DNA from: a virus
Direction: 5' to 3' (one strand)
Virus record (IMG/VR): IMGVR_UViG_3300013132_000033
Coordinates: 1 to 64,000 of that record
DNA length: 64,000 nucleotides
The position numbers and the translations under genes were made by a program. The notes under the pieces are model-generated. The model ran no database searches, was not told where the DNA came from, and saw only the letters and a list, made by a program, of their open reading frames with translations. This document shows, one piece after another, positions 11,201 through 63,675 of the stretch (positions are counted from its first letter, which is position 1; each line of letters begins with the position of its first letter).

Positions 11201-12408
11201 GAATACCTCCACAAGAAATAAACGAAAATGATTCTGGTTATGCTGGCATGCAAACTAAACTTGATTGTGTTAGTACACCATACGGACATATTTGGGTAGA
11301 TCAAAAACGCGGTCAAATATTTAACTTTAATACTAAAATAGAAGAACTTACTAATCCTGCAAGTGGAATGTCATCTTGGTTTAAACACGAATTACCATCT
11401 AAATTAGATGCTGAATTTTATAGAGTTCATGGCATTCCGTATCCATATCATTCAGTTTATAATGGTCAATTAGGTATAGGATTAAATCTTGTTTATGATC
11501 CTAGATATAAACGATTGTTAATTACCAAAACTGATTATGGATTTAGATCTATTGGCTATCAAGGATTTAAAACAAAAGCACAATTTGATGCTGAGTATCA
11601 AGGTATATATTTTGATTTTGAAGAAGAAAAATTTAAATACAGACAATCATCTGATGTAGTATCTAGTTATTTATATGGTGTTTATCCTATAGTTAATGAA
11701 TCATGGAATTTATCATTTTCATTTGAAACTAATTCATGGGCATCATTTCATTCATATATTCCCAGAGTTTCTTTTTTTGACAGTACCCATTATTATACTT
11801 TTGAAAATAGTTTAACTGAAAGTATTGATAGTATGATATTTAATACAATATGGCGACATAGACATATTAGTAATTATCAAAAGTATTATGATATTAAACA
11901 TCAATTTGCAGTTGAATGGCAAGTATATAAACCAACTACTGAACAATTATCAACTGTACATTATGTAGGTAATACTTGGGTATGGGATGAAGTAAACTTT
12001 CAATGGATACCTTTAAATCGTACATTTGATTATGGTTTATTTTATAGTATTGATCAAAGTACTGGTAAAATACCATTAACTTTAATAGATCAAAATCAAA
12101 ATCCATATCAAAATGTAAGTTTTAACAATTCTTCAAAATATGTAATTCGCACAGATGATAATTATAAAATATCTGGTTTATATGATATGTCTACAGGAAC
12201 TCCTGTCACAATTAAACTTAAATCAAATGCTAGAACTTTTTGGGATGATATAAATGATTCAAATATAGATTTTACTAAAAGTAGTTATAACACCCAATTA
12301 TTAAAAGGTAAAGTTGTAAACTGTAGATTATACTTTTATAACTATGATGTAGACGCTAAAAAAGTTATCAATATAGTTCAAACAAATAAACTTCAATCAA
12401 TACGATGA
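8200..12408 (+). CDS. tail stabilisation / muzzle protein (crAss Tstab-like)
   Basis: 1402 aa; N-terminal GLNKD...YALNA and later 'GDEVYMFGVQFV..DGS.SPVF' and 'WASFHSY.P' motifs typical of crAss-like muzzle proteins. Confidence 0.7.
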   Translation: MSLLDKQSATQLQNGLNKDLTFQREGDVTYALNAIRDSHDGGKYDYQSEPGNEFAAVIPGSTIVGIVYGQDDEVYLFATDGNDCTIGIFRKNKYTEHVRSSFFNWSVDNPITGQSRVKNGCERLVYWCDALNNDYFYNFDKPEEFKTGNAFDVNKFKLVPSILPIKMDLLSVNNGGGLLPLGSYYFQAEILDENQNSLYTSDVSPQVVIYDNSTAEDYNRINGGLNIAQYSAESGGVPLTTKSISLKFYNLNPAFKFIRVNVFRKIAGSNQLDGHTVAELISIGNGTVNWTYRGLNTAAGDFPIDVNEKFIDNARYDSAYVMEQVQGRLLRANLKQDVRDYSEYQNYVSKITAKWVAKEVEANNIESVGNPKNPETYWVGRGFQGDEVYMFGVQFVHKDGSISPVFPLIGKTSIPSDTFLYTVVANTVTLPQFNEVWLSDVEHLGYQIGNQVPSWKFKNGAIITSSQTVTHPYSYEGDFGFYETEETYPDIRDCNNNLIWGTDADDNVITTSTKVRLFQFPDRRIVSHTSIDAKYLIPLGVKFSDITYPNSDVVGHKFVYAERTEFDKTVVDSGWAVKPEVLEIGIKLGQYRVGGSAEFTKADPFKNSTIDSTFLRYISSNVLYKQRLGAFDYYKLNRAHRFDSGLISTNGDLDYARTPLKDGGFLASVIMYMKQTNHVLTSRLNHKQLQSILVKPNTITEAQGYFPKILGEDLYTGDSVSKINYTLENSILPAQITDDWHLGNNTQYAVNNFYAYKKALVNPYSNFLVRKYKSIHHNYTTSVFAQDNVYYGGDTLITENANFRVAFFYRTAQTAGSYIMTPLFCHHYEEHDINTALRHEGTGENFKYFKMGDTDEINYNRLTYYDGTDRVLNQRNNIQTLNVETEYYAYNDDYTVDNVEKSKVPIPSSFDYCSDCLYNYPNRIIFSPKSFDEEAYDLYRISKINDYIDIPASKGKITGLKYINNYLLVHTENGLFILQPNPQSFVTDINNVYISTGDFLGIPPQEINENDSGYAGMQTKLDCVSTPYGHIWVDQKRGQIFNFNTKIEELTNPASGMSSWFKHELPSKLDAEFYRVHGIPYPYHSVYNGQLGIGLNLVYDPRYKRLLITKTDYGFRSIGYQGFKTKAQFDAEYQGIYFDFEEEKFKYRQSSDVVSSYLYGVYPIVNESWNLSFSFETNSWASFHSYIPRVSFFDSTHYYTFENSLTESIDSMIFNTIWRHRHISNYQKYYDIKHQFAVEWQVYKPTTEQLSTVHYVGNTWVWDEVNFQWIPLNRTFDYGLFYSIDQSTGKIPLTLIDQNQNPYQNVSFNNSSKYVIRTDDNYKISGLYDMSTGTPVTIKLKSNARTFWDDINDSNIDFTKSSYNTQLLKGKVVNCRLYFYNYDVDAKKVINIVQTNKLQSIR

Positions 12409-14822
12409 AAAAGCAAGAAGCAAATTTAAAAAAAGCTTTGCAATCTTTATGGGCAGAACCTACTGCAGATGTATATCCTAAAAAATATAGTACTGGTGGT
12501 CAGATTCTTTCCACAATGGCTTCATTAATTCCTGGATATGGTGCTGTTATATCACCACTTATCTCAATAGCAGATCAGTATCGAGATAAAACAATAGCTG
12601 ATAAAAAAGCTAAACAAGATATGTTAAATTCAAGACCTGTTCAAATGAATACTGATATATATGGTCAAATGGCATCAGGTGGTTATACTACATCTAAATT
12701 TAAACAATATCGTACTGGTGGTCATGCTAGTGGTAACGATCAATTAATTTCTGAAAATGGTGTGCCATCTAATAATAATGCAGTCGCTTCTGTACAGAAT
12801 AATGAAAATGCTTATACTAATAATAAACAAACTTACATTTATTCTGATGTATTAGTTAATCCTGAAACTGGAAATACATTTAATGTAGATTCTGCAAAAG
12901 CTGTTAAAAAATATAAATATGCTGATACAGATCCTGAACAAAAACGTGCATTAGATTTTACAATGAATAGGTTGTCAATGTTAAATGATACTATGCGTAA
13001 TATGAAAGATTCTGTTCAAAAAGCATTTGGTGGTCCACCGGATCCTGGTAAATCATTAATACCTACAGCTAAAATTAGTCAAGAAAGTATTTATTATCCT
13101 ATTAATATTTTTGAAAAACCTCGTGATACAACTGATCGATTGATTAGTACAATGCCTTTAGGTATAGATCCTAATGGTCTTCCATATCCTAGTATGGATG
13201 CTGATCCTAGATCTTCTTTACCTAAAACAAAATCAATAGATGAAGTAATAGCTATAGCCGCTAGTGGTACAACAAATGTTGGAGGTTGGGATGGTTCTGG
13301 TTCTAAATTCAAATCTAAAGAACGATTCAGAGAAAAAGCTGGCGGAGGACTTACTAGTGAAGATAGAGGTTCTGATAAAAAACCATATCCTTCAGTAGCA
13401 TCTAATAATTTTGCTGGAGGTAATAGGTCTTATCCTATACCAACTAAAGCAGATGCTATCGACGCTCTTAGGTTAGCTGGATTACATGGTAGGAGTGATG
13501 TACGTGCTAATGTATATGAAAAATATCCTGAACTTAAAAAAGCGTATGGTGGCAATCCATTATCTAAAATGACTAATATGGCAACAACATCTGTTGCCGA
13601 TGCGTTAGCTTTTCAAGGTCAACATAACCCTGATACTCCATTACAAGAAGCACTTGATAAAGCTGATTTATATTATCATAGTACAGATTTTAATTTATTT
13701 TCTAACGGAGAAAGAGGTTGGCAAATCCCACCTGGTATATCAACATTTCCATTAATACAACCTTGGTCAAACGTAATAACATATGGTTCAGATAATAATC
13801 AATATAAATATCAGCCTCCAGCAACGCCTTCAGCAACACAACCTGCAACACCAGTAGCAAATGTTACAACTCCAACAGTAGCTCCAACAACAAGTACAAA
13901 GACACCTGTTCTTAGTAAATCAGCTATGCCAAAATATGACGAGATATCTCCTGAAGATGCATTAAATGTAGATTTAACTAAAGAGCTAGGTTATGCTACA
14001 GTATTAGATAATCCTGTATCTGATAGATCTATTACAATGGATGAACGAGCAGGTATGGTAACTAATCCATATAAAAATGATAATGCTAAAGTTAACACGC
14101 CTTATACAGCACCGCCGGATAAAAAAAATCCGTTTAATTACAATGCTGTAGCTATGGGTTTAAAAGCTGTAGCATTAGGTAAATCAGTAGCAGATGCTTT
14201 AGAAAAACCTGTTGTAGAAAAACCAATGTTTACAGATTATAATGCTTCTGATAGACAAATGTATGGTACTAATGTAGATTATACTCAAGCACGTCAAGAT
14301 GCTATGGCAGCATCTAATTTAGCAGCTAATGTTAATAGAGCAGCTTCTTCAGGGTTTAATCAATATCAAGGAAGAATGCAATCTACATATGGCAACTTGG
14401 CAGATCAATTAGGTCAAATTAGTATGAATGAAAATCTGCAACGTAATCAACAAGCAATGCAACGTGGACAATATGAAACTGCTAAAGCAATAGATGTTAA
14501 AAATACTATGTATCAAAATAGGATTGATAACATGCAAAATATGGCTAATGCTAAACTTGCAGATCAAAAGTTATTTTCTGAACTTAGTCAAATTGGTACA
14601 GAGTTTAATCAATATCAAGGTTATAAAGAAATGTTGCAGAATAATAAAGAACTTAGTCAAGCAACTATTAATCAAGGTTTAGCTTTGATTGGTTCCAATT
14701 ATGCTAATTTTGGATTTACAAAAGATTTTATAGATAAAATTAAAAGTGGTCAAGCTACTCAAAACGAATTAATTCAGTTTATAGCAACTACTGATAAAGT
14801 TAAACAAAATCAATCTGGATAA
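12405..14822 (+). CDS. putative virion cargo (ejection) protein
   Basis: 805 aa; low-complexity P/T/A segments, Q/N-rich helical C-terminus, repeated KxxGG motifs; follows the muzzle gene. Confidence 0.55.
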   Translation: MKKQEANLKKALQSLWAEPTADVYPKKYSTGGQILSTMASLIPGYGAVISPLISIADQYRDKTIADKKAKQDMLNSRPVQMNTDIYGQMASGGYTTSKFKQYRTGGHASGNDQLISENGVPSNNNAVASVQNNENAYTNNKQTYIYSDVLVNPETGNTFNVDSAKAVKKYKYADTDPEQKRALDFTMNRLSMLNDTMRNMKDSVQKAFGGPPDPGKSLIPTAKISQESIYYPINIFEKPRDTTDRLISTMPLGIDPNGLPYPSMDADPRSSLPKTKSIDEVIAIAASGTTNVGGWDGSGSKFKSKERFREKAGGGLTSEDRGSDKKPYPSVASNNFAGGNRSYPIPTKADAIDALRLAGLHGRSDVRANVYEKYPELKKAYGGNPLSKMTNMATTSVADALAFQGQHNPDTPLQEALDKADLYYHSTDFNLFSNGERGWQIPPGISTFPLIQPWSNVITYGSDNNQYKYQPPATPSATQPATPVANVTTPTVAPTTSTKTPVLSKSAMPKYDEISPEDALNVDLTKELGYATVLDNPVSDRSITMDERAGMVTNPYKNDNAKVNTPYTAPPDKKNPFNYNAVAMGLKAVALGKSVADALEKPVVEKPMFTDYNASDRQMYGTNVDYTQARQDAMAASNLAANVNRAASSGFNQYQGRMQSTYGNLADQLGQISMNENLQRNQQAMQRGQYETAKAIDVKNTMYQNRIDNMQNMANAKLADQKLFSELSQIGTEFNQYQGYKEMLQNNKELSQATINQGLALIGSNYANFGFTKDFIDKIKSGQATQNELIQFIATTDKVKQNQSG

Positions 14823-14824
14823 TT

Positions 14825-17488
14825 ATGGCTATAAGTAGATTTGATAAATTTACACCACGCGATTATAATATGGAGTGGTACATGCCAAAAGAGTTCATAC
14901 CGGACTTTGAAGCATGGAATACAATGTTAGCTGGTAAACAATCTAAATATGATACTGCTGTTGCACTATCTCAAAAGTTACCTAAACATTTAGCACATCG
15001 TGTAGACCTAGCTGGTCAATATAAACAAAAAACTGATCAAGCTATTAATGATATTTCATCAGCTTATACTAAAGATATTTCTGCAGGAGATAGAATGCTT
15101 CGTGATTATGGGTTAAATATGAATCGAGATTGGCAAGCTGGAGGTTTGGCATATGAGTTAGAACAAGAAGCTGCTGAGTATGCTAAAGCTCAAGAAGAAA
15201 TATCAAAATATTATAAAGACGCTAAAGCTGAACATAGTGCTAATAAAAACTTGGCAATGTATAAATTGCAAGAAGCTGCTAAAAAAGATTTTGGTTACGA
15301 TCCTAATACAGGATTATATACACGAGCAAGTATTTCAGCAGATACTACATCATTTGTAGATATTATGGAAGAAGCTCAGAAAGTTATAAAAGAAATTAAA
15401 GATTCCGGTAATACAACTATTACAAATTTAAGTCCTGCATGGTTATTGAAAATTAAACAAGAAGGTGTAAGTCCAGAAACTATTAAAGGTGTTGCTCAAG
15501 AATTATTAAAACAACCAAAGTATGCTCAACAATTAGCTATTGAACAATGGGATAAAAAACGTAGATATACACCGGACCAGTTAACTGAAATGGAAACTAA
15601 TTATAGAAAAAATGCTAATGATCAATTAACGACAGAAGGTGATGAGTTACTTAAAACTACAAAGAATAAAAAAGATGCTATAGCTATTCAAGAGATGTTA
15701 ACTAAAGAAGGTTTTTATACAGCTACTATTGATGGTAAATTTGGAAATCAAAGTAAAAAAGCTTTTAACGAATGGCTACAAAGTAAACGTGATAGTATTA
15801 ATGAAGTAGATGCTGATACTATTATTAGTAAACAATTAATTAATAGTTACGTAGATCCTTTAGTTAAGACATATACTAGAATGAACATAGATAAAACTCC
15901 TATATTTAATAAACAATGGGGAGTTGAAAGACAGATTCAAGGTCAAGCTCAAAACAATGCTATATTTGCACAAACACTAATGCGTCCTGAACCTGGTGAA
16001 TATTTGGTAAGTCCCGGTGCTGCAAGACCTATGGATAAAATAGATAAAATGACAGCTACTGCAAAAACTACTTATGAAGATGCTAAAAAAACATTTAATA
16101 TGGTAGTTAGTAAATCTCCTATAGCCGGTCAAAATTATGCTCCTCATGAAATTAATATGATTACAATGGCTAGAATGGAATCTAAAACTCCTCAAGAATT
16201 TCAAAGTAAATTAGCATCGTACGGAGTTATGGTTCCAAATGTTCAAGCAACATATGATTGGTATTCAAGTCCTGAAGCTGTAAATTTAAATACTGCTTAT
16301 AAAGCAATGTCTTCTGCAGGACATCAGTTACAAACTTATACTAACTCTCAAGAAGCAATGTTAAATCAGTTTATTAAAACTGAAGAAGGTAAAAAATATT
16401 TTAATAATTTAAAAAAGAAAAAAGATTTTAGTACACTTAGTGATGCAGATCTTATTAAAATGATTGCTACAAATAATTTAAAAGCAAATGATAATACAGG
16501 TGGTGTAAGATATATTGCTACACCTTCTGGTATGATACCAACTCAAAGTGATATATCAGGCGCAGTAAGTGATTTAAAAAGAGGAATTGATAAATGGGTG
16601 CAAAACAATCCCGATGCGTTACCTGTATCTTTACGTGGGTATGCTATAACTGCAACTAAAGGTGTAGGTGCAACATTAACTAAAGATATTATAACAGATT
16701 TACAATCAGGTAATACTGCAGGATATTCTTACGGAGATATGCCGTTACAATTTACAACTGCTGATGGTAAAAAAATAAATACTTCTGATTTAGATGCTAA
16801 TAGTTTAAATGTTAGAATAACTAGTGATGCTAAAGGTGTAACATATTATATCAGTGGTAAAGATAATGATAAAAATTCTGTTACAGGTGTTGCAACTGCA
16901 CCAGTTCAACATAATGGTAGACTAGCCAATATTTCAAAAGATATGTTATTAAATGCTAAACAAACTGGAGATAAGTATTTAGAAAACTTAGCGGCTCAAA
17001 TTTATAATAATACTAAAGGTGATAATGCTTCAAGATATGCTTCAGAAAATATGTTAATACTTGATAATAAAAATTCAGGTAGTTTAAATGAAGTTATCAA
17101 CCCTGCTGTTAAAGATCGAATAGTTACGTTTGGAGGAAATCCAAATGTAAAAGGTCGTAAGGTTGGTGGTGAGATAAGTATGAATGGTGAAACTTTTCAA
17201 AAATATAAAATTAAAAATGAAGTTGGTAAAGATGTATTTATGATGACGCGTCAAGTTGCAGATAAAAATGGTAATATATATTACGCACCTATATTAAATG
17301 AAAGTGGAGGTTTGTATTATGATAACTCTTCTGATGCAGAAATGCCATTAATAAAAAGTGAAATGATGAGTCAATTAAATGTTGAATATAAAACTGGTAG
17401 TTTTAAAACACCAAATATGACTGAACAACAAGCTGCAGCTTTATTAGCGCATATGAATTCAAATGATATTCTTAACCAAAATGATTAA
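14825..17488 (+). CDS. putative virion cargo protein with internal peptidoglycan-binding domain
   Basis: 887 aa; IQEMLTKEGFYTATIDGKFGNQSKKAF matches the PG_binding_1 consensus (LQxxL...G..DGxFGxxT..A). Confidence 0.6.
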   Translation: MAISRFDKFTPRDYNMEWYMPKEFIPDFEAWNTMLAGKQSKYDTAVALSQKLPKHLAHRVDLAGQYKQKTDQAINDISSAYTKDISAGDRMLRDYGLNMNRDWQAGGLAYELEQEAAEYAKAQEEISKYYKDAKAEHSANKNLAMYKLQEAAKKDFGYDPNTGLYTRASISADTTSFVDIMEEAQKVIKEIKDSGNTTITNLSPAWLLKIKQEGVSPETIKGVAQELLKQPKYAQQLAIEQWDKKRRYTPDQLTEMETNYRKNANDQLTTEGDELLKTTKNKKDAIAIQEMLTKEGFYTATIDGKFGNQSKKAFNEWLQSKRDSINEVDADTIISKQLINSYVDPLVKTYTRMNIDKTPIFNKQWGVERQIQGQAQNNAIFAQTLMRPEPGEYLVSPGAARPMDKIDKMTATAKTTYEDAKKTFNMVVSKSPIAGQNYAPHEINMITMARMESKTPQEFQSKLASYGVMVPNVQATYDWYSSPEAVNLNTAYKAMSSAGHQLQTYTNSQEAMLNQFIKTEEGKKYFNNLKKKKDFSTLSDADLIKMIATNNLKANDNTGGVRYIATPSGMIPTQSDISGAVSDLKRGIDKWVQNNPDALPVSLRGYAITATKGVGATLTKDIITDLQSGNTAGYSYGDMPLQFTTADGKKINTSDLDANSLNVRITSDAKGVTYYISGKDNDKNSVTGVATAPVQHNGRLANISKDMLLNAKQTGDKYLENLAAQIYNNTKGDNASRYASENMLILDNKNSGSLNEVINPAVKDRIVTFGGNPNVKGRKVGGEISMNGETFQKYKIKNEVGKDVFMMTRQVADKNGNIYYAPILNESGGLYYDNSSDAEMPLIKSEMMSQLNVEYKTGSFKTPNMTEQQAAALLAHMNSNDILNQND

Positions 17489-17491
17489 TAT

Positions 17492-20400
17492 ATGGCTAAA
17501 GTAGTAGGTACTGCTGCAGGAACATCTTATGATCCATTAGCAGCTTCACAACAAGAATTACAAAATTTAGGGTTAGCTCCTACAAAACATAATACTGAAT
17601 TTTCATTGACATCTGAAACAACAGGTTTAAATGAATTTAATAATATTGATTTAGGTCAATACGATAAACCACCATCTTTATATAGTAACGATGCTCAAGC
17701 GTCTAGTATATTAAATGAAATGCGTGCTCAAAATCAAGGTGCTGGAGAACAATTTTTAAAAGGTGTAGGTCGTGTTGCAAGTACAGCAATAACAGAATTA
17801 TTTAAAGTTCCTGGTTATTTAGGTGGAGCTTTAGGCTCTAGTTTAATGGAAGGAGACTTTATTGAAAATACTGTAGATAATGCTTGGGTAAATGCTTTTC
17901 AAAGTTTAGATGAAAACATTAAAGAAAGTATTCCAATATATCTTACAAAAGAAGTTGAAGAAGGTGGTATAGGTAGAAAGCTTATGTCATCTGCATGGTG
18001 GTCTACTACTGGTGCAGACGGGATAGGCTTTTTACTATCCATGTATGCTCCGGGTAAAGTAATTGGTGCTTTAGGATCAGGATTAAAATTAGCTAGAGGT
18101 GTTGAAGCCATTGCTAATAGTTCTAAACTAGGATCTAAACTTGCAAGACTTTCTGGATTAGTAGATAATGCTGCAACATTTACAGAACAAGGTTTAAAAG
18201 TAACTGGTAAAGGTGTAGGTAAATTAGAATCGTTAGCTACTGTAGCTACTAATACTTTTGTAGAATCTGCTGCTGAAGCTGCTAATACATTTGATAATGT
18301 AAAAGAAGCTTACATGCGCAACAATCCTAATGCTACTGAAGAAGAAGCTAAGAAAGTTGCTGGAGATCAAGCTGCTGCTGTAATGAAAGCAAATATTGCA
18401 GTATTAGCAATATCTAATTATTTTGATGAACTTACTTTATTTAACGGATTTGGTAAAGGAGATGCAGCTATTAAAAATAGTATATTTGGTAAACTTACTA
18501 AAGATGGTATAATTGATTTTACAGATTTGAGTAAGATTGAAAAATACGGATTTAGACAATGGGCATCTAAAGAATTACCAGCTAAAGTAGCAGCATCTTT
18601 TGCTAAAGAAGGTTTCTTTGAAGAAGGACTTCAAACTAAAATTCAACAACATTATGAAAAGAAAGCTGCTGGAGAAACTAGTGAAAATTTCTTTGATGAT
18701 GTAATTGGTAATTATTTCCATTCTTTATTAAGTGATATTGAAATGCAAGAAGCAGTTGTTCTTGGGGGTATACTTGGAGGAGGTGCTGGTGTTATAGGTT
18801 CTTATTCAGATATGAAAAATACTGAGAGATTTCTCAGAGGTGGTGAAGCTTATACACCTAACTTCTTTGGTAAAATGTTAGGTCGTAAACCTAGAGAAGC
18901 TACAAAAGGATTTTTAGATTTAGCTAATGAAAACTTTATACAATCCACAAGAAGTTTAAAAGATATAGCTGAACTTGAAGATGATGGCAGGATTAAATTT
19001 CAAACTAAACAAAAAGAAATAATAGATCCTGTTACTGGTAAAACAGTAATTCAAGATGTTCAAGTACCAGTAATTAATCAAGATAAACTTAAAAACTTAA
19101 TGGAAGAGAAAAGTAGTATGTTACAATTAGTAACTCTACATAGTATTCTTTCACAAGCTGGTGAAGTTGAACAAGCTGAAGTATATAAACAATTAATTGA
19201 CTACGCAAGATTTACACCGTTTATTCAACAAGAAGGTGGGTATGAAGTATTAGAAGCTTTTATTAAATCAGGTAAATTAACTGAATTAGAAGCTAATCAA
19301 ATATTAGAAAATGAAAATAGAACAATAACTGATGCTGAAAAACAAGATATAACTAATGGTATGTTAAAGCAAGCTAAGTTATTTAAAGATGTTTATGATG
19401 AAGTTAACAGAACATTTATTCCTGAAAAGTATGTTAAACCTGATGATAAAGAACAATATAATGCCTGGAAACAAACTGCATTTAATCGTAAACTACAAAA
19501 CTTGTTAGCGTCAAAGAACTTGACACAACAAATGTTTAATATTAAAAATAAGTATGGAGATTTTGAATTAACAGAAGATGATTATAATACATTAACTCCA
19601 GACGAAGCTTTAAATAAAAAACGTTCTAAAGATGTTTATGATAATCTTGCTAAACAATGGCAAGATGCTAAAGAAACTTATTTAAAACTTTCTGATGCAA
19701 ATGGTTTACGAAATGATTACGAAGAATTTAAAAAAGAGAAAGAAGAAGAGTTAACAAAAGTAGGTAAAGAGTTAAAAGACTCTACACAAGAAGCTTTAGA
19801 TGATAATACAGCTACAAGTAAATTTAAAGAAACGCTTCAATATTCTGGTTATAATGTAACAGATTCTACTAATGGTTTTAATGCTGCTGGCTTAGATGGT
19901 AATCAAATTGTACTAGAAAGAAATAGCGATAATAAAAATGTTATATTAACACCTATTAATAATAATGGTGTTATTGATTATGTGATGGTAAATGATGACG
20001 GCACATCAACATTAGTAACTAAAAATGGTATATTTAGTAAATCATTTTTAGATAGCATGTCTGTTGTAATTGCAGATAATGCTAAAGAACAAATAGAAAA
20101 AGCTAAAATACAACAGTTAAAAAATGAAAAACTTAGGACATTAGAACTGTTACAAGAATTTCAAAAACAAAATTACAAAGAAGGTAAAGAAAGATTACAA
20201 GAATTAGATAAATTGTTTGCTAGTACTTATGAAGAAATTTCAAAATATAACGATCAGTTAAACGATGCTGTAAATGGTGTTAATGCAAGAAAAGCTGGAA
20301 ATAGTACCGCTACTAATCAAGCAGTAGATAGAGCAGTAATTGAAGGACTTCTTAATCAAGCTTTTGAACGATATAATGCTTTAAATAATGAAAGACAATT

Positions 20401-58452: not shown

Positions 58453-58590
58453 TTATTTTTTAAGTTTTTTAACTAAACGAAAGCCAAGAAAAGTAAAACG
58501 ATGATTTTTCTCATAGTAAACACGTACATTTATTTTACAAACTTCAATAACAGTACCATAAGAACCACCATAAATAAAAATATTATCCAT
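58453..58590 (-). CDS. array unit 12 (45 aa)
   Basis: MDNIFIYGGSYGTVIEVCKINVRVYYEKNHRFTFLGFRLVKKLKK*; 8-nt overlap with unit 11. Confidence 0.75.
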   Translation of the reverse strand: MDNIFIYGGSYGTVIEVCKINVRVYYEKNHRFTFLGFRLVKKLKK

Positions 58591-58723
58591 GTTTTAATGT
58601 TTTAATTAAACGGAACCCCAAGCCGCCGTAGCGGTAGTCGGGCGTGTCGCCGCTGCGATCCGCCACCCGGCAGTACTGCGGGTAGCCGTACCACGACCCG
58701 CCGCGAATATACTTATAATTCAT
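58583..58723 (-). CDS. array unit 11 (46 aa), very GC-rich core
   Basis: MNYKYIRGGSWYGYPQYCRVADRSGDTPDYRYGGLGFRLIKTLKHG*; TAATG overlap. Confidence 0.8.
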   Translation of the reverse strand: MNYKYIRGGSWYGYPQYCRVADRSGDTPDYRYGGLGFRLIKTLKHG

Positions 58724-58857
58724 TATTTCAGTTTTTTAATTAAACGAAATCCTAAGACTTTGTAGCGGTGATCCAGCTCGTCTAAGTACTGAAAATCGGG
58801 CAAGCAACCGATTGCTAGGCTACCATAGCTACCACCACGAATATACTTATAATTCAT
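58723..58857 (-). CDS. array unit 10 (44 aa)
   Basis: MNYKYIRGGSYGSLAIGCLPDFQYLDELDHRYKVLGFRLIKKLK*; ATGA overlap. Confidence 0.75.
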   Translation of the reverse strand: MNYKYIRGGSYGSLAIGCLPDFQYLDELDHRYKVLGFRLIKKLK

Positions 58858-58994
58858 GTTTTAACTGTTTTAATAAGTCTAAACCCAACATAATTACAAC
58901 AATATTGTTGATGACTCCACAATCGATCTGATGATTTACACGCTAGATTATTACTAATCCACGATCCACCATAATTAATAAGATAATTTTTCAT
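58854..58994 (-). CDS. array unit 9 (46 aa)
   Basis: MKNYLINYGGSWISNNLACKSSDRLWSHQQYCCNYVGFRLIKTVKT*; ATGA overlap. Confidence 0.75.
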   Translation of the reverse strand: MKNYLINYGGSWISNNLACKSSDRLWSHQQYCCNYVGFRLIKTVKT

Positions 58995-59131
58995 GATTTT
59001 AATGATTTAGTTAAACGAAAGCCAATGTATTGTGTCCTGAATGACGGTCGATAAGTTGTGCGAAAATCAGTACGGCAAAATTTTAGATTAAAATTATCCC
59101 AACAACCTCCAAAAATAATAAATGTATTCAT
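58991..59131 (-). CDS. array unit 8 (46 aa)
   Basis: MNTFIIFGGCWDNFNLKFCRTDFRTTYRPSFRTQYIGFRLTKSLKS*; ATGA overlap. Confidence 0.75.
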   Translation of the reverse strand: MNTFIIFGGCWDNFNLKFCRTDFRTTYRPSFRTQYIGFRLTKSLKS

Positions 59132-59271
59132 GATTTTAATATTTTAATTAATCGAAATCCAACATACAAATATTTGTAAATTGCTTTATTTCTAACATGT
59201 TCTGATGAACGATCAACTATTAAACAATTTTGATGATAAACACCTGTTCCTTTTATAGTTATTTGGTTCAT
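59128..59271 (-). CDS. array unit 7 (47 aa), AT-rich and diverged
   Basis: MNQITIKGTGVYHQNCLIVDRSSEHVRNKAIYKYLYVGFRLIKILKS*; ATGA overlap. Confidence 0.7.
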   Translation of the reverse strand: MNQITIKGTGVYHQNCLIVDRSSEHVRNKAIYKYLYVGFRLIKILKS

Positions 59272-59408
59272 AATTTTAATGATTTAGTTAAACGAAATCC
59301 TAAAGCGTTAGCATGATAATCCAATATACTAAGATTGCGATAAACTGTAAGACAACCGTAGTTAAAACTGCTACATCCACCGCCGCGAATGTTAAAATAT
59401 TTTTACAT
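59268..59408 (-). pseudogene. array unit 6 (ATG immediately followed by TAA)
   Basis: ATG(59408)-TAA then KYFNIRGGGCSSFNYGCLTVYRNLSILDYHANALGFRLTKSLKL*. Confidence 0.65.
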
Positions 59409-59539
59409 TTTAATGTTTTAATTAGACGAAAACCAACTATGTTGCTACGACACTCATGTACACCGATGTCACGATATAATACTCGACAACGCTCGGGAAC
59501 GTTAATCCAGCTACCGCTACAAAGAATAAAGGTATTCAT
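59300..59539 (-). CDS. array unit 5 (stop codon lost; reads through out of frame into unit 6)
   Basis: MNTFILCSGSWINVPERCRVLYRDIGVHECRSNIVGFRLIKTLK followed by a 35-aa extension. Confidence 0.65.
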   Translation of the reverse strand: MNTFILCSGSWINVPERCRVLYRDIGVHECRSNIVGFRLIKTLKCKNILTFAAVDVAVLTTVVLQFIAILVYWIIMLTL

Positions 59540-59673
59540 TATTTCAGTTTTTTAATTAAACGGAAGCCAATGCTGAAGTTGCGGAAGTCCGAATCGTCCC
59601 AGCCCCGAAACGCTACCCGGCAGTACTCCGGGGAGCGGTTCCAACTACCTCCAACAATATTAAAGTATTTCAT
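59539..59673 (-). CDS. array unit 4 (44 aa), GC-rich core
   Basis: MKYFNIVGGSWNRSPEYCRVAFRGWDDSDFRNFSIGFRLIKKLK*; TAATG overlap. Confidence 0.8.
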   Translation of the reverse strand: MKYFNIVGGSWNRSPEYCRVAFRGWDDSDFRNFSIGFRLIKKLK

Positions 59674-59807
59674 TATTTTAATGTTTTAATTAAGCGAAAG
59701 CCCAAAAAGTTGAAGCGGCGGTCCGGCCCGCTGATGAAGCGATCCGATGCGCGGCAGAACCTGGCAGTGTTGAGCCAGCCGCCGCTAAAAACTACAAATG
59801 TATTCAT
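59673..59807 (-). CDS. array unit 3 (44 aa), GC-rich core
   Basis: MNTFVVFSGGWLNTARFCRASDRFISGPDRRFNFLGFRLIKTLK*; TAATG overlap. Confidence 0.8.
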   Translation of the reverse strand: MNTFVVFSGGWLNTARFCRASDRFISGPDRRFNFLGFRLIKTLK

Positions 59808-59941
59808 TATTTTAATGTTTTAATTAAGCGAAAGCCGAGATGGCTGAAGCGGTAGTCCGGCCCGTAGAAGTTGCGATACGAAGCGCAGCAGTACACGGCA
59901 TTGATGACCCAGCTGCCGCCTTTTATAATAAAGTATTTCAT
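59807..59941 (-). CDS. array unit 2 (44 aa), GC-rich core
   Basis: MKYFIIKGGSWVINAVYCCASYRNFYGPDYRFSHLGFRLIKTLK*; TAATG overlap. Confidence 0.8.
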   Translation of the reverse strand: MKYFIIKGGSWVINAVYCCASYRNFYGPDYRFSHLGFRLIKTLK

Positions 59942-60072
59942 TATTTAAGTTTTTTGATTAATCGAAAACCAAGATATTTTTCGCAATATCTTAATTTATC
60001 ATAACTAGATATTGTTATACGGCAGTTTGTAATACTATTATAACTACCGCCTTTAATTATAATTTGTTTCAT
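59941..60072 (-). CDS. array unit 1 (43 aa)
   Basis: MKQIIIKGGSYNSITNCRITISSYDKLRYCEKYLGFRLIKKLK*. Confidence 0.75.
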   Translation of the reverse strand: MKQIIIKGGSYNSITNCRITISSYDKLRYCEKYLGFRLIKKLK

Positions 60073-60093: not shown

Positions 60094-60123
60094 AAAAAGG
60101 GGGCTGCTGTTAACAACCCCCTT
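60094..60123 (-). terminator. intrinsic terminator-like hairpin between the FGE gene and the array
   Basis: Minus strand AAGGGGGTTGTT-AAC-AGCAGCCCCCTTTTT. Confidence 0.7.
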
Positions 60124-60129
60124 AAAAAA

Positions 60130-60738
60130 TTATTTAGGTAGTGGCATGTTTTGATCTACGGACTGAGGAATTCGTTTGTTACGATAAAAATCAATAAAGT
60201 TTTGATTTGTAACGTTTGGAACAATAGGTCCATAGACACTATTAGTCCATTCCCACACGTTGCCGCTCATATCATACAGACCAATTGAATTTGGTTTTTT
60301 CAAACCAACAGGATGTGTTTCTCCGCCGGAATTTCCATAATACCATGCAACTTCGTCAATATTATCAGAACCTGCGTATTTATGTGAAGTCATTTCATGA
60401 CCTCCCCTTGCAGCATATTCCCACTGTTCTTCTGTTGGTAATTCATATTTATACTTAGGATCTAACTCATTAAGTTTTGCAATAAATTTTTTGATATCGT
60501 TGTAAGATATATTTTCAACAGGTCGATTTTCCCAATCAGGACGATTTTTAAAATACGATGGATTTTCACCCATCACATCTACCCATTGTTTTTGGGTAAC
60601 AAGAAATGTTGTCATTTCAAAATTTTCAGCAATCTCAACCATTTTGTTACGATTGGGACCGAAAAGAAATTTACCAGCAAGTACTTTTATAGTGCTGAAA
60701 TTTGGGAGTGTTGGTTTAAAACCTTTTGGTTTAGCCAT
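60130..60738 (-). CDS. FGE-sulfatase (SUMF1) / C-type-lectin-fold protein lacking the C-terminal RGGSW...GFR segment
   Basis: VTQxQW..VMGxNPSYF, PVENISY, LPTEEQWEYAARGG, HPVGxKKPNxxGLYDMSGNVWEW, then an unrelated ~36-aa tail. Confidence 0.9.
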   Translation of the reverse strand: MAKPKGFKPTLPNFSTIKVLAGKFLFGPNRNKMVEIAENFEMTTFLVTQKQWVDVMGENPSYFKNRPDWENRPVENISYNDIKKFIAKLNELDPKYKYELPTEEQWEYAARGGHEMTSHKYAGSDNIDEVAWYYGNSGGETHPVGLKKPNSIGLYDMSGNVWEWTNSVYGPIVPNVTNQNFIDFYRNKRIPQSVDQNMPLPK

Positions 60739-60750
60739 TTTGAAATTTTT

Positions 60751-61688
60751 TTAAAATAGTGAATGTTTTGGTTTAAATTTAACTACTTCGTTATTTGCTT
60801 GAACGATGTAGTATTGATAATTAATATTATAATCTTTTGGATTAGTACTTTGAACTTGATTTAATAATTGACTATAATATGATTTTCCTTTTTGAGGATG
60901 CGCATTGAGATATTCATACGATCCTTTTGAATATACTTTTTTAAATATCATACCTGTTTTAGATATGATATATCTTATTGTCTTTGGTAATTTAGTTACA
61001 GTATTATTATTTGTGATACCTATAAAAGAACTATCTTGTTTAGCCCTAACGCCTATACAATAATCAAAAATATTATCACCATTAATAATTGTATCTTCTA
61101 CAGGTGTGTTATACAAAAAATAATTATAAATAGCTTTTCTAACTATTAATTCAGATTTATTTTTATGTAACGGTAAATTTTCAAACTCAAAACTACCTTT
61201 ACATTTTGCTTTACCATTAGTATAAATTGCAATATAATTGTTGACATCTCGAATAATCATTTTACTATAATAAGCGTATTCTAATTGAAGTCTAGTTATA
61301 GACTCCCATTGTTTACAAATATTATAATATTCTGATTCATGTTGTTTTCTAAGTTTACAAGTTAAACCGTCTGTATTTATTTGAATAAGTGTCAAATCAG
61401 GTATTTCCATTAATTGTTCAGCTAACATTGTTAACATTAACTGACCATTAATAGTTGTAGATAATGTATATTTAAAATCACGTAACCAAGAAGTTTCTTC
61501 ATTACTTTTACCGTAGACACTATTAGCAGCTTCTTTATAACCGGCAACAATAACAAAATCTCCATTTTTACCTTTTGCTTTTTCACGTAATCTTACATCT
61601 ACAATATCTTCTTTGTAAACTCTACTAAATTCTTCTCCTAAATGTTCAGGATATAAATTATTTACTGTAGCTATACTTGGGTATAGTG
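60751..61688 (-). CDS. polB: family B DNA polymerase, exon 2
   Basis: Open frame upstream of track ORF 60751-61437 gives (S)LYPS, KEAANSVYGK (motif B) and NTDG (motif C). Confidence 0.9.
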
Positions 61689-61706
61689 CATACCCTCTGA
61701 ATATTT

Positions 61707-62501
61707 CTATTCAGTTTGGACTTTATCATCAATTAAAACCTTATTCCACCAATATCCATACATACTTGGTTTTTCACCACTACATACTGCATAAATATTG
61801 TGTCGTTTGTAATCAGGGTTTTGCTCTAACAATTCATAAACGGTATTCCATCTTTTTATTAAAGTTTGTTTATCTTTAGTATATTGATCTATATAATATT
61901 TAGTTATTTTTTGAGATTGCTTTAATATATCCTGTTTTTTAATTTCAGGATTATTTTCATATTTTTGTTTTCTAGTATATACACCTTTTACTTGAATTTC
62001 ATATGGAACTTTTTTTCTATTACCTTCTTTAAAAGTTTTTAATATCTTTTCTGACATTATTTTCTTTTGTTCTTCTGTCCATTTATTATTAAAATTTGGA
62101 TTGAGTTCTCCTTTCATTCTTTTTTTTAATAATTCTCTTGTTTTTTCATGAACAAAAGATTGGGAAGAAGAATCTTGTCTAAGATTATATCCATAATTTA
62201 AATCAGTAGTATTGTAATACTTCATCCAATATAATTCTCTGTCTTTAATATTATTTTGAAAATTTTCTGAATGAATATCTATTTCTTCTAAAATTTCATA
62301 TATAAAATTATTTTTTCCATATTTATGCCAAGAATTAATTAAATATCTATTACAATCTTTAGATTTACTAGTTAACCCGCAAATATGATTTGCAATTCTA
62401 TTATTAATATTAATTGATTTTCCAATATACCTTTTTCCGTTTATTATATTGATAATGCAATAAATTCCCGATTTGTTTTTAAGTTGTTTGTTTATCTTCA
62501 T
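61707..62501 (-). CDS. GIY-YIG homing endonuclease (intron-encoded)
   Basis: SGIYCI...YIGKS...R...E...GYN; C-terminal NUMOD-like DNA-binding region. Confidence 0.9.
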   Translation of the reverse strand: MKINKQLKNKSGIYCIINIINGKRYIGKSININNRIANHICGLTSKSKDCNRYLINSWHKYGKNNFIYEILEEIDIHSENFQNNIKDRELYWMKYYNTTDLNYGYNLRQDSSSQSFVHEKTRELLKKRMKGELNPNFNNKWTEEQKKIMSEKILKTFKEGNRKKVPYEIQVKGVYTRKQKYENNPEIKKQDILKQSQKITKYYIDQYTKDKQTLIKRWNTVYELLEQNPDYKRHNIYAVCSGEKPSMYGYWWNKVLIDDKVQTE

Positions 62502-62520
62502 ATCTTTTTTAAATTTATTA

Positions 62521-62552
62521 CAAAGATACGACGTTTCTTCTCTATATCCAAA
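62521..62552 (-). promoter_or_regulatory. Bacteroidota sigma-A type promoter for the homing endonuclease
   Basis: Minus strand TTTG-N20-TATCTTTG, about 20 nt upstream of the ATG at 62501. Confidence 0.65.
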
Positions 62553-62780
62553 TATTTTAACAACTTTAACAAAACTTTAACGTTTTAATGCTTCCTGTTA
62601 AGTCTCTGAACCTTATTCTCATATTTTTGTGAGAATCTTGGCTGCGGATTGACCAATACTTTCTCTTTTTACTATACTCAATTGATTAGATTGACCACTA
62701 TATACATCACTGTCATAGTTTAGTAAGAAAGTCTCTAAGGTTATTCCCGCAATTTAAGAAGTTTTAGTTGCGCCACTTTA

Positions 62781-63675
62781 ACGCAACATCGGCATCAAGA
62801 ATTATCCAATCATTGTCAGCATTTACAATTTCAGTATTTACACTACCATGTATACCGCCTTTACCATAATCAAATTGAAATCCTTTATAAATAAAAGATT
62901 TATTAAATTTTTCTGTTGGTTCAATATTTTTATCTTTAAACCAATTTAATAAACCTTGTAATTCTATATTTTTAAATTGTATATACGGAAAAAGTATATC
63001 TTTTACATATACATTTGTACGTATAGTTTGTTTTTTACTAATTTCTTTTTTATTAGCTTTAACTGCTTTACAGTATAAATCTAACATTAATTCTGATCCT
63101 ATTTTACTATTACTAGCATTTATAAAATTTATACCATATTTGCTAGTTAAACTTATTCTTAACTGTAATTCTTTTTCATACAGTTTAAATAATTGATCTG
63201 TAGCATTTACATCATTAATACAATATTTTATAGTAGCATCAGCTTCTTCTCTTGAATTAACATGACCATGATAAGGCATATCTTCAAGATTTGGCCAATC
63301 AACCATAAATTCACACCATTTTAAACTTACCATTCTGTTTTTATTATCAAGATGTAATATCTTGTAAATATCAACATTAAATATAGTTCGTTTGTATATA
63401 GGAACAATTATTTCTTCTTGTTCAATTATTCTTACTGTATATTCATGAATTTGTTTAGCAGTTAACTTTCTTAATTTTAACAGTTCGATAATTTGACCAT
63501 CAAAATTTAAATTGTTATATCCGCGTAAAGAATTAACAGTTTTTAAAAAAGCTACTAATTCATTATACTCATTTTTCCAATCACTTATTTCAAAGATTTT
63601 ATAATTATCTTCATTTTTAAATACAGCACAAAAGAAATTAGGTAGAGTTTCTACATCATAAGTCCAATTTGCCAT
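62781..63675 (-). CDS. polB: family B DNA polymerase, exon 1 (3'-5' exonuclease domain and start of motif A)
   Basis: YDVE (ExoI), GYNNLNFD (ExoII), YCINDV (ExoIII), GGIHG, DADVA; spliced product 610 aa. Confidence 0.9.

Follow-up and report, generated by a model that had tools for sequence, protein, structure and literature searches.

The cores of two neighbouring mini-ORFs in a phage genome, units 2 and 3 of a twelve-unit array, arose independently of each other as adenine-mutagenised copies of a single DGR template repeat (TR). Sequence comparison places this template, together with its HRDC accessory gene and its reverse transcriptase (RT), in bacteria of the Saprospiraceae type. In these bacteria, the C-terminal FGE/C-type-lectin tip of a sensor protein with a caspase domain is written from the same template. 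The core of unit 4 is a like copy that comes from a second DGR of the same bacterial lineage, one that serves a STAND-NTPase sensor. We conclude that the cores are products of bacterial DGRs that have been placed into cassettes of the phage. We consider it very probable indeed that the cores are of DGR origin and that their templates lie outside the phage; to the whole explanation, including the route that the copies took and their function, we assign a probability of roughly 0.5.

The scaffold gene and the array

The window, that is, the whole stretch of DNA that was analysed, comprises the first 64 kb of an IMG/VR virus record of 99,040 bp with 30% GC. The phage that carries the array is crAss-like. 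Both the array and its scaffold gene are situated in the replication block, outside the structural modules, in the neighbourhood of genes for a ribonucleotide reductase, a helicase and a DNA polymerase, the last of which is interrupted by a GIY-YIG ORF. The polymerase consists of two ORFs, which correspond to positions 54-357 and 437-654 of phrog_1252, with the GIY-YIG/NUMOD3 ORF between them (Table 1); this layout suggests an intron or an intein-free split bearing a homing endonuclease.

The scaffold gene encodes a truncated FGE/C-type-lectin domain, and its closest solved structure is the variable protein TvpA of T. denticola (2y3c_A, E = 5.6e-19). It is followed by 12 tandem mini-ORFs of 43-47 codons on the minus strand (60072..58453), which recur with a period of 132-144 nt (134 nt according to Tandem Repeats Finder). 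Each unit has its own ATG, which overlaps with the stop codon of its neighbour (TAATG or ATGA), and its product runs from a GGSW motif over a conserved Cys and Arg to GFRLIK, which corresponds to positions 214-255 of the Pfam FGE-sulfatase domain. Each unit encodes the last ~44 residues (GGSW to GFRLIK) that are missing from the truncated scaffold gene upstream. No single polypeptide of the locus contains a complete PF03781 domain, as the scaffold covers positions 5-194 and the units cover positions 214-255. The scaffold ORF stops with TAA just ahead of the strand that precedes the GGSW motif. Since the stretch from GGSW to GFR is continuous in all 18 aligned viral homologues, whereas the phage scaffold ends earlier, the phage domain is split exactly ahead of this strand. 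The DGR variable repeat thus lies at the C-terminal ligand-binding part of a protein with the CLec/FGE fold, the domain being divided over two genes. As far as we could find, an architecture of one truncated lectin scaffold with a translationally coupled library of alternative binding tips has not been described.

Table 1. Features of the scaffold gene, the mini-ORF array and the adjoining polymerase locus (positions in the window).
Feature	Position	Strand	Product	Remarks
DNA polymerase, two ORFs	60751..63675	-		interrupted
GIY-YIG/NUMOD3 ORF	61707..62501			between both polymerase ORFs
Truncated FGE/C-type-lectin scaffold gene	60130..60738	-	202 aa	Pfam FGE-sulfatase positions 5-194 of 255, E = 3e-29
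Terminator-like hairpin between scaffold gene and unit 1	60097..60123	-		12-pair stem with 6 GC pairs, then T-run
Unit 1 mini-ORF	59941..60072	-	43 aa	AT-rich core
Unit 2 mini-ORF	59807..59941	-	44 aa	core 59828-59920, DGR-type variable region; GC island; Pfam FGE 214-255
Unit 3 mini-ORF	59673..59807	-	44 aa	core 59694-59786, DGR-type variable region; same template as unit 2
Unit 4 mini-ORF	59539..59673	-	44 aa	core 59560-59652, DGR-type variable region; second template
Unit 5	59405..59539	-		intermediate GC; stop codon lost
Unit 6, broken	59268..59408	-		TAA at codon 2
Damaged junction of units 5 and 6	59268..59539			gives a spurious 79-aa ORF
Unit 7 mini-ORF	59128..59271	-	47 aa	AT-rich; GGSW motif degenerate
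Unit 8 mini-ORF	58991..59131	-	46 aa	
Unit 9 mini-ORF	58854..58994	-	46 aa	
Unit 10 mini-ORF	58723..58857	-	44 aa	intermediate GC
Unit 11 mini-ORF	58583..58723	-	46 aa	core 58610-58702, 72% GC, variable-region-like; Pfam FGE 214-255, 24.4 bits
Unit 12 mini-ORF, last of the array	58453..58590	-	45 aa	AT-rich

The reading frame is open in 11 of the 12 units. Only 5.5% of shuffled unit interiors are free of stop codons, which argues that the frames of the units are maintained. An 8-bp palindrome, TTAATTAA, occurs in the LIK codons right after GFR in 8 of the 12 units (window 58453-60072).

The 5' frames, the cores and the 3' frames of the units show discordant relationships, from which it follows that the cores were replaced independently of their frames. 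For example, the 5' frames of units 10 and 11 are 95% identical, and their cores are 45% identical. The 3' frames are 100% identical within the pairs of units 2/3 and units 4/10, and this suggests gene conversion between frames. In a scan of the whole 99 kb, the only 90-nt windows with at least 58% GC were the cores of units 11, 4, 3 and 2. By direct reading, unit 5 has the residue scaffold of unit 4 but is written in AT-rich synonymous codons, which suggests an older import.

We were not able to find this arrangement elsewhere. A blastn search of a phage GenBank collection with the locus gave no matches, and neither did scans of IMG/VR with the unit junction, the scaffold pattern of units 2 and 3, the scaffold pattern of unit 4 or a profile of the 12 units. 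No homologues of the small protein of unit 2 were found among 5.8 billion proteins, a weak result as ORFs of 44 codons are seldom called by gene callers.

Adenine-specific differences and their template

An earlier note on this DNA had counted 23 mismatches between the cores of units 2 and 3, nearly all of them at the first two codon positions, and had proposed that both cores descend from one template by adenine mutagenesis. An ungapped alignment of the 93-nt cores returns the same 23 differences, of which 12 affect the first codon position, 9 the second and 2 the third, and the codons that had been named as invariant (TGG and TGC, for example) are indeed identical. If all positions changed at equal rates, the probability of finding two or fewer of 23 differences at position 3 would be 0.0067; neutral drift is expected to produce a bias towards this position. 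The cores have 61-65% GC and 13-14% A and lie inside AT-rich frames, and a direct reading places all of their adenines, with the exception of a single GAC codon, in codons that vary between the two.

Taken alone, the bias towards positions 1 and 2 is also expected under positive selection. The differences could then have arisen with no DGR at all, if a binding surface under strong diversifying selection had accumulated ordinary mutations, or, the record being a metagenome assembly, the GC-rich cores could be chimeras of the assembly. What decides here is the template itself. We searched public collections for IUPAC patterns in which the bases that do not vary between units 2 and 3 were fixed. 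In the genome collection there was a single match, on a contig (L082) of the Saprospiraceae MAG 49614_E9, at the 3' end of a 933-aa gene with Peptidase_C14 and FGE-sulfatase domains. In the metagenome collection, the 3' half of the scaffold pattern had no match; the 5' half matched four unrelated GC-rich sequences and the metagenome contig Ga0172373_10111115 (L096). This contig of 2,040 bp carries an HRDC ORF, an RVT_1 ORF and a 93-nt AAC-rich repeat, which begins ~28 nt past the stop of the RT.

When the repeat is compared by eye with the template that had been predicted from the phage, 88 of the 91 specified bases are equal, the differences being at positions 26, 59 and 90. An RT adjoining the template had been named as one check of the proposal, and it is present on L096, outside the phage. 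The other check, whether mismatches fall on template adenines, gave a strongly adenine-specific result in both units: 16 of 29 adenines and 3 of 64 other bases are changed in unit 2 (p = 1e-7), and 18 of 29 adenines and 4 of 64 other bases in unit 3 (p = 2e-8). Furthermore, 18 of the 23 differences between the two units fall on template adenines. The variable region (VR) of the caspase-FGE gene of the MAG has changes at 12 of 29 adenines and at 0 of 64 other bases of the same template (p = 1.2e-7). As a positive control, we compared TR and VR on contig C164 of the MAG and found 17 of 28 adenines and 1 of 65 other bases changed (p = 1.9e-10). With the template found, the adenine bias and the adjacent RT, the origin of both cores from one template is supported as the earlier note had proposed it.

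The independently found template matches 93-95% of the non-adenine sites and 38-45% of the adenine sites, which effectively refutes an origin by selection on ordinary mutations. With respect to chimeras, the k-mers shared between bacterial and phage sequence are at most 12 nt long, too short as seeds, and each of the four cores keeps the frame of the phage-type flanks around it. We thus regard an explanation that dispenses with DGRs as having next to no chance.

A second template, the TR on contig C173 of the MAG, gives a similar picture for unit 4 (18 of 31 adenines and 5 of 62 other bases changed, p = 4e-7) and for unit 11 (20 of 31 and 12 of 62, p = 2e-5). The non-adenine changes of unit 11 are mostly G/C swaps, which implies a further, related template that was itself not found. 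No adenine-biased mismatch to any template tested was seen in the AT-rich units (unit 1, units 5 to 10 and unit 12). The four non-adenine mismatches of unit 3 all lie at the edges of the core (positions 1, 82, 84 and 90), with none in the interior, and so do 3 of the 5 in unit 4; this clustering at the edges is how recombination junctions would look.

Bacterial donor DGRs

The Saprospiraceae MAG contains two complete DGRs. On C164 the order is VR, RT and TR. The second lies on C173, a contig of 105 kb and 52% GC with housekeeping genes, in the order TIR-like gene, 1,066-aa STAND-NTPase-FGE target with VR, HRDC-RT and TR. In the region L136 (G001:C173:48000-66000), a conflict-type operon extends over 17605..11476 on the minus strand and begins with the TIR-like gene of 499 aa; the frame of its HRDC-RT ORF is open right through the template repeat. 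The RTs of L096, C164 and C173 are paralogues and 47-56% identical.

The third copy of the template of units 2 and 3 is the one at the 3' end of the caspase-FGE (Peptidase_C14 and FGE) sensor gene of the MAG. Of 301 genomes sampled from the family of this MAG, the MAG alone had the scaffold pattern of the unit 4 type. The phage scaffold protein resembles the FGE domains of both bacterial targets, with 50% identity over 132 aa for the caspase-linked and 66% over 67 aa for the STAND-linked protein. We also compared phage bases 1-60000 with the MAG and found significant DNA similarity at the cores of units 3 and 4 alone; besides the cores there was one marginal match of 48 nt. Within the same bases, no CRISPR spacer or other host link between phage and MAG was found beyond the cores.

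The phage record and the DGR machinery

We were not able to find the machinery of a DGR in the phage. In the 99,040-bp record, RVT_1 had no match at E <= 10 while the controls matched, and HRDC (PF00570) and Avd (PF05635) had none either. A sliding scan of both strands that allowed mismatches on adenines only found no template-like partner in the record. There is no IMH at the units, where the sequence 3' of the GFR codons is AT-rich, unlike the 3' flanks of the TRs, and the palindromes 3' of the units are AT palindromes only, with no GC-rich hairpin or cruciform. As the 99-kb record lacks both the template and the RT, which are bacterial, the phage locus is not itself a DGR.

One may object that the phage has, or recently had, a DGR of its own in the ~10% of the genome that was not sequenced, and that the cores are its ordinary remote targets. 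CheckV puts the completeness of the record at 90% and a terminal repeat is absent from it. Moreover, an ORF of 1,556 codons (genome positions 94372-99040, past the 64-kb window) is still open where the contig ends, so the record is truncated there. TR/VR repeats are able to break assemblies, and one of five large related viral contigs does contain an RT. Such a DGR would, however, have to fit at least two to three distinct GC-rich templates into less than ~10 kb of a phage with 30% GC, while the matching templates lie in bacterial contexts of 48-52% GC, one of them on the 105-kb housekeeping contig where it serves a STAND sensor. With at least two GC-rich templates in bacterial contexts, we find a DGR of the phage itself quite improbable.

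Related viral loci

The 79 related viral loci contain 64 distinct FGE cores, for which the median third-position GC is 0.68 as compared to 0.33 in the rest of the gene. They have NNC codons on an invariant adenine-free scaffold. The phage FGE family with variable-region-like 3' cores includes the IMG/VR contigs L099-L120, L039, L047 and L080 as well as G003, G004 and G006. No template-like partner was found within 6 kb of any of the 79 loci, nor did an RT turn up within this distance in the family, and three related genomes that are ~90% complete contain neither an RT nor a partner. A scan of IMG/VR for template-compatible sequences yielded 25 alleles of the variable type and no templates. Between related phage contigs whose 400-nt upstream flanks are 100% identical, 13 of 96 core bases differ, and it is in the core alone that contigs with identical flanks differ.

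The mini-ORF array occurs in none of the related viral loci. Several of them (L069-L073, L027 and L062) have 5-8 tandem full-length FGE paralogues, so that the whole gene is multiplied there as opposed to the tip only here. The sole RT among the five large related contigs, at L098 (G002:C1:87425-90940), has an in-frame TAG, and no template for the FGE core of that phage was found beside it. We also considered L025 as a homologue without the GFR motif and rejected it, as it is a full-length variant.

Route of the cores into the phage

We favour an arrival of the cores as cDNA of host DGRs, which we think has about an even chance of being correct, over a capture of host DNA. During infection of a DGR-bearing host, mutagenised cDNA would replace the core of a pre-existing AT-rich cassette and would be resolved through short identities at the GGSW and GFR codons. 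The reaction would be non-canonical, in trans and without an IMH, and the imported copies would drift afterwards towards the AT-rich composition of the phage. We prefer this route because the imported tracts stay within the span of the template, none of them reaching beyond it, because there is no other host-like island in the phage, and because of precedents from BPP-1: 8 bp of identity are enough there for 5' cDNA integration, and a plasmid-borne DGR rewrites a phage target in trans (PMC3240598). Among the related phages, the contigs with identical 400-nt flanks that differ in a variable-region-like segment and the near-complete genomes that lack RT and TR also count in favour of cDNA. Several observations count against this route. 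Canonical retrohoming needs features that the units lack, namely an IMH-like flank and a GC-rich hairpin; the 3' junction of unit 2 is unlike that of unit 3, which priming at a fixed IMH would not produce; and the array would need to have been a target of at least two to three different host DGRs.

As an alternative, finished variable regions of host DGR target genes may have recombined into the array at the conserved GGSW and GFR codons, with no reverse transcription onto phage DNA. An IMH or a hairpin would then be unnecessary, the 3' junctions do vary, and the host lineage has several VR-bearing genes per genome. In addition, unit 3 is nearer to the variable region on contig C205 of the MAG (75 of 93 bases, 82% identical in the DNA comparison) than to the template (71 of 93), and at 6 of 10 doubly mutated adenine sites the two agree (P = 0.08), although this surplus of shared substitutions falls short of significance once the A-to-T bias is taken into account. 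On the other hand, at least four independent in-frame double crossovers on 9-12 nt of imperfect identity would be needed, the 99 kb hold no other host-derived GC island, and no tract contains host sequence outside the TR span. We consider DNA capture a real possibility with the odds somewhat against it, and retain arrival as cDNA as the preferred route.

Comparison with known systems

To our knowledge, DGRs are regarded as self-contained, with RT, template and targets in one genome. The phage array shares with the BPP-1 DGR (mtd-avd-TR-brt) the adenine-specific transfer from an invariant template to the 3' end of a binding-protein gene with the C-type-lectin fold, whereby codons of the AAC type turn into NNC on a scaffold free of adenines. 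It differs in that RT, accessory gene, TR, IMH and hairpin are all missing from the phage, in that its templates lie in another genome, and in that the recipient consists of separate mini-ORFs and not, as in BPP-1, of the end of one gene. TvpA of T. denticola (PDB 2Y3C) is the best match of the scaffold family in sequence and fold, but is a single full-length lipoprotein, whereas the phage domain is split. The donor DGRs have the HRDC-RT-TR layout in common with HRDC-type DGRs that have remote FGE-type targets; all remote DGR targets that we know of so far are in the RT's own genome.

A tandem library of alternative variable segments adjoining a single scaffold or expression gene is a feature of Borrelia vls and Neisseria pilS. 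The cassettes of these systems are untranslated and are copied into the expression site, whereas the phage units have their own ATG and stop and the phage has no expression site bearing a fused tip.

The donor loci fit the class of DGR-diversified CLec/FGE antigen sensors in the conflict systems of multicellular bacteria (Kaur et al. 2020, PMC7159879; Dore et al. 2024, PMC10907252): the FGE tips are linked to caspase or STAND-NTPase domains, there are several paralogous DGRs per genome, and these act in trans on remote targets of the same genome. In contrast, neither an effector nor an NTPase domain accompanies the phage copy, which is split and resides in a virus. Copies of such sensors in phages are not described in the sections searched of the two papers. 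In laboratory trans-complementation (Guo et al. 2011, PMC3240598; PMC12875486), in which the target lies on a phage or a plasmid, an RT and a TR from another replicon can rewrite a target in phage DNA. However, the laboratory system requires an IMH and a hairpin adjacent to the target, and it is engineered, not a natural case of transfer from host to virus.

Possible function

The functional part of our explanation is tentative, and we would rather expect it to be wrong than right. The mini-ORFs may be translated separately and may complete the scaffold non-covalently, and the outcome would be a panel of effector-less intracellular binding domains built from the sensor repertoire of the host. 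The overlap between stops and starts suggests that separate peptides are made by coupled translation. A model of the scaffold by itself is confident for the first ~110 residues only; its pLDDT is below 50 from residue 119 onward, and the model (pLDDT 60) was too weak for a fold search. A full-length homologue modelled from the same 19-row alignment reached a pTM of 0.77 and a TvpA-like fold (TM 0.80 to 2y3c). These models are consistent with a scaffold that needs a C-terminal piece. We count the Pfam coverage of scaffold and units (5-194 and 214-255) in favour of split complementation, and the terminator-like hairpin that parts the scaffold gene from the array against the functional reading.

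A fusion of scaffold and unit by read-through, frameshift or an alternative code was considered and rejected, as the stops are TAA and TGA, the next start is in another frame and the terminator-like hairpin lies between. It is conceivable that ribosomes bypass the gap between the last AAA codon of the scaffold and the AAA that follows the ATG in unit 1, but nothing supports this.

The products of the scaffold gene and the array have no signal peptide and no effector domain. Together with the setting among replication genes and the origin of the tips from host sensors, this hints at an intracellular decoy or interference role, which we consider unlikely. Equally speculative is the idea that the array serves the phage in counter-defence, as an effector-less split copy of the DGR-diversified antigen-sensor domain of the host whose tips would be restocked from the output of the host DGRs. 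If this were true, soluble decoys or poisoning fragments would mask the phage component that the caspase and STAND sensors are tuned to detect, and the array would be the counterpart, in a bacterial virus, of captured decoy receptors, with the hypermutation machinery of the host as its supply.

Biological meaning

Products of at least two bacterial DGRs are present in a virus that has none of the machinery, and we conclude that hypermutated sequence of a sensor has crossed from a bacterium to its virus. The cores, and the cores alone, thereby provide a sequence-level host link between the phage and the Saprospiraceae lineage that is independent of CRISPR spacers. Since DGRs such as these donors have been proposed to diversify intracellular antigen sensors of multicellular bacteria, either host hypermutation writes on phage DNA or phages harvest the variable regions of sensors. 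By either route, an adaptive-like bacterial immune repertoire would be linked directly to viral genomes.
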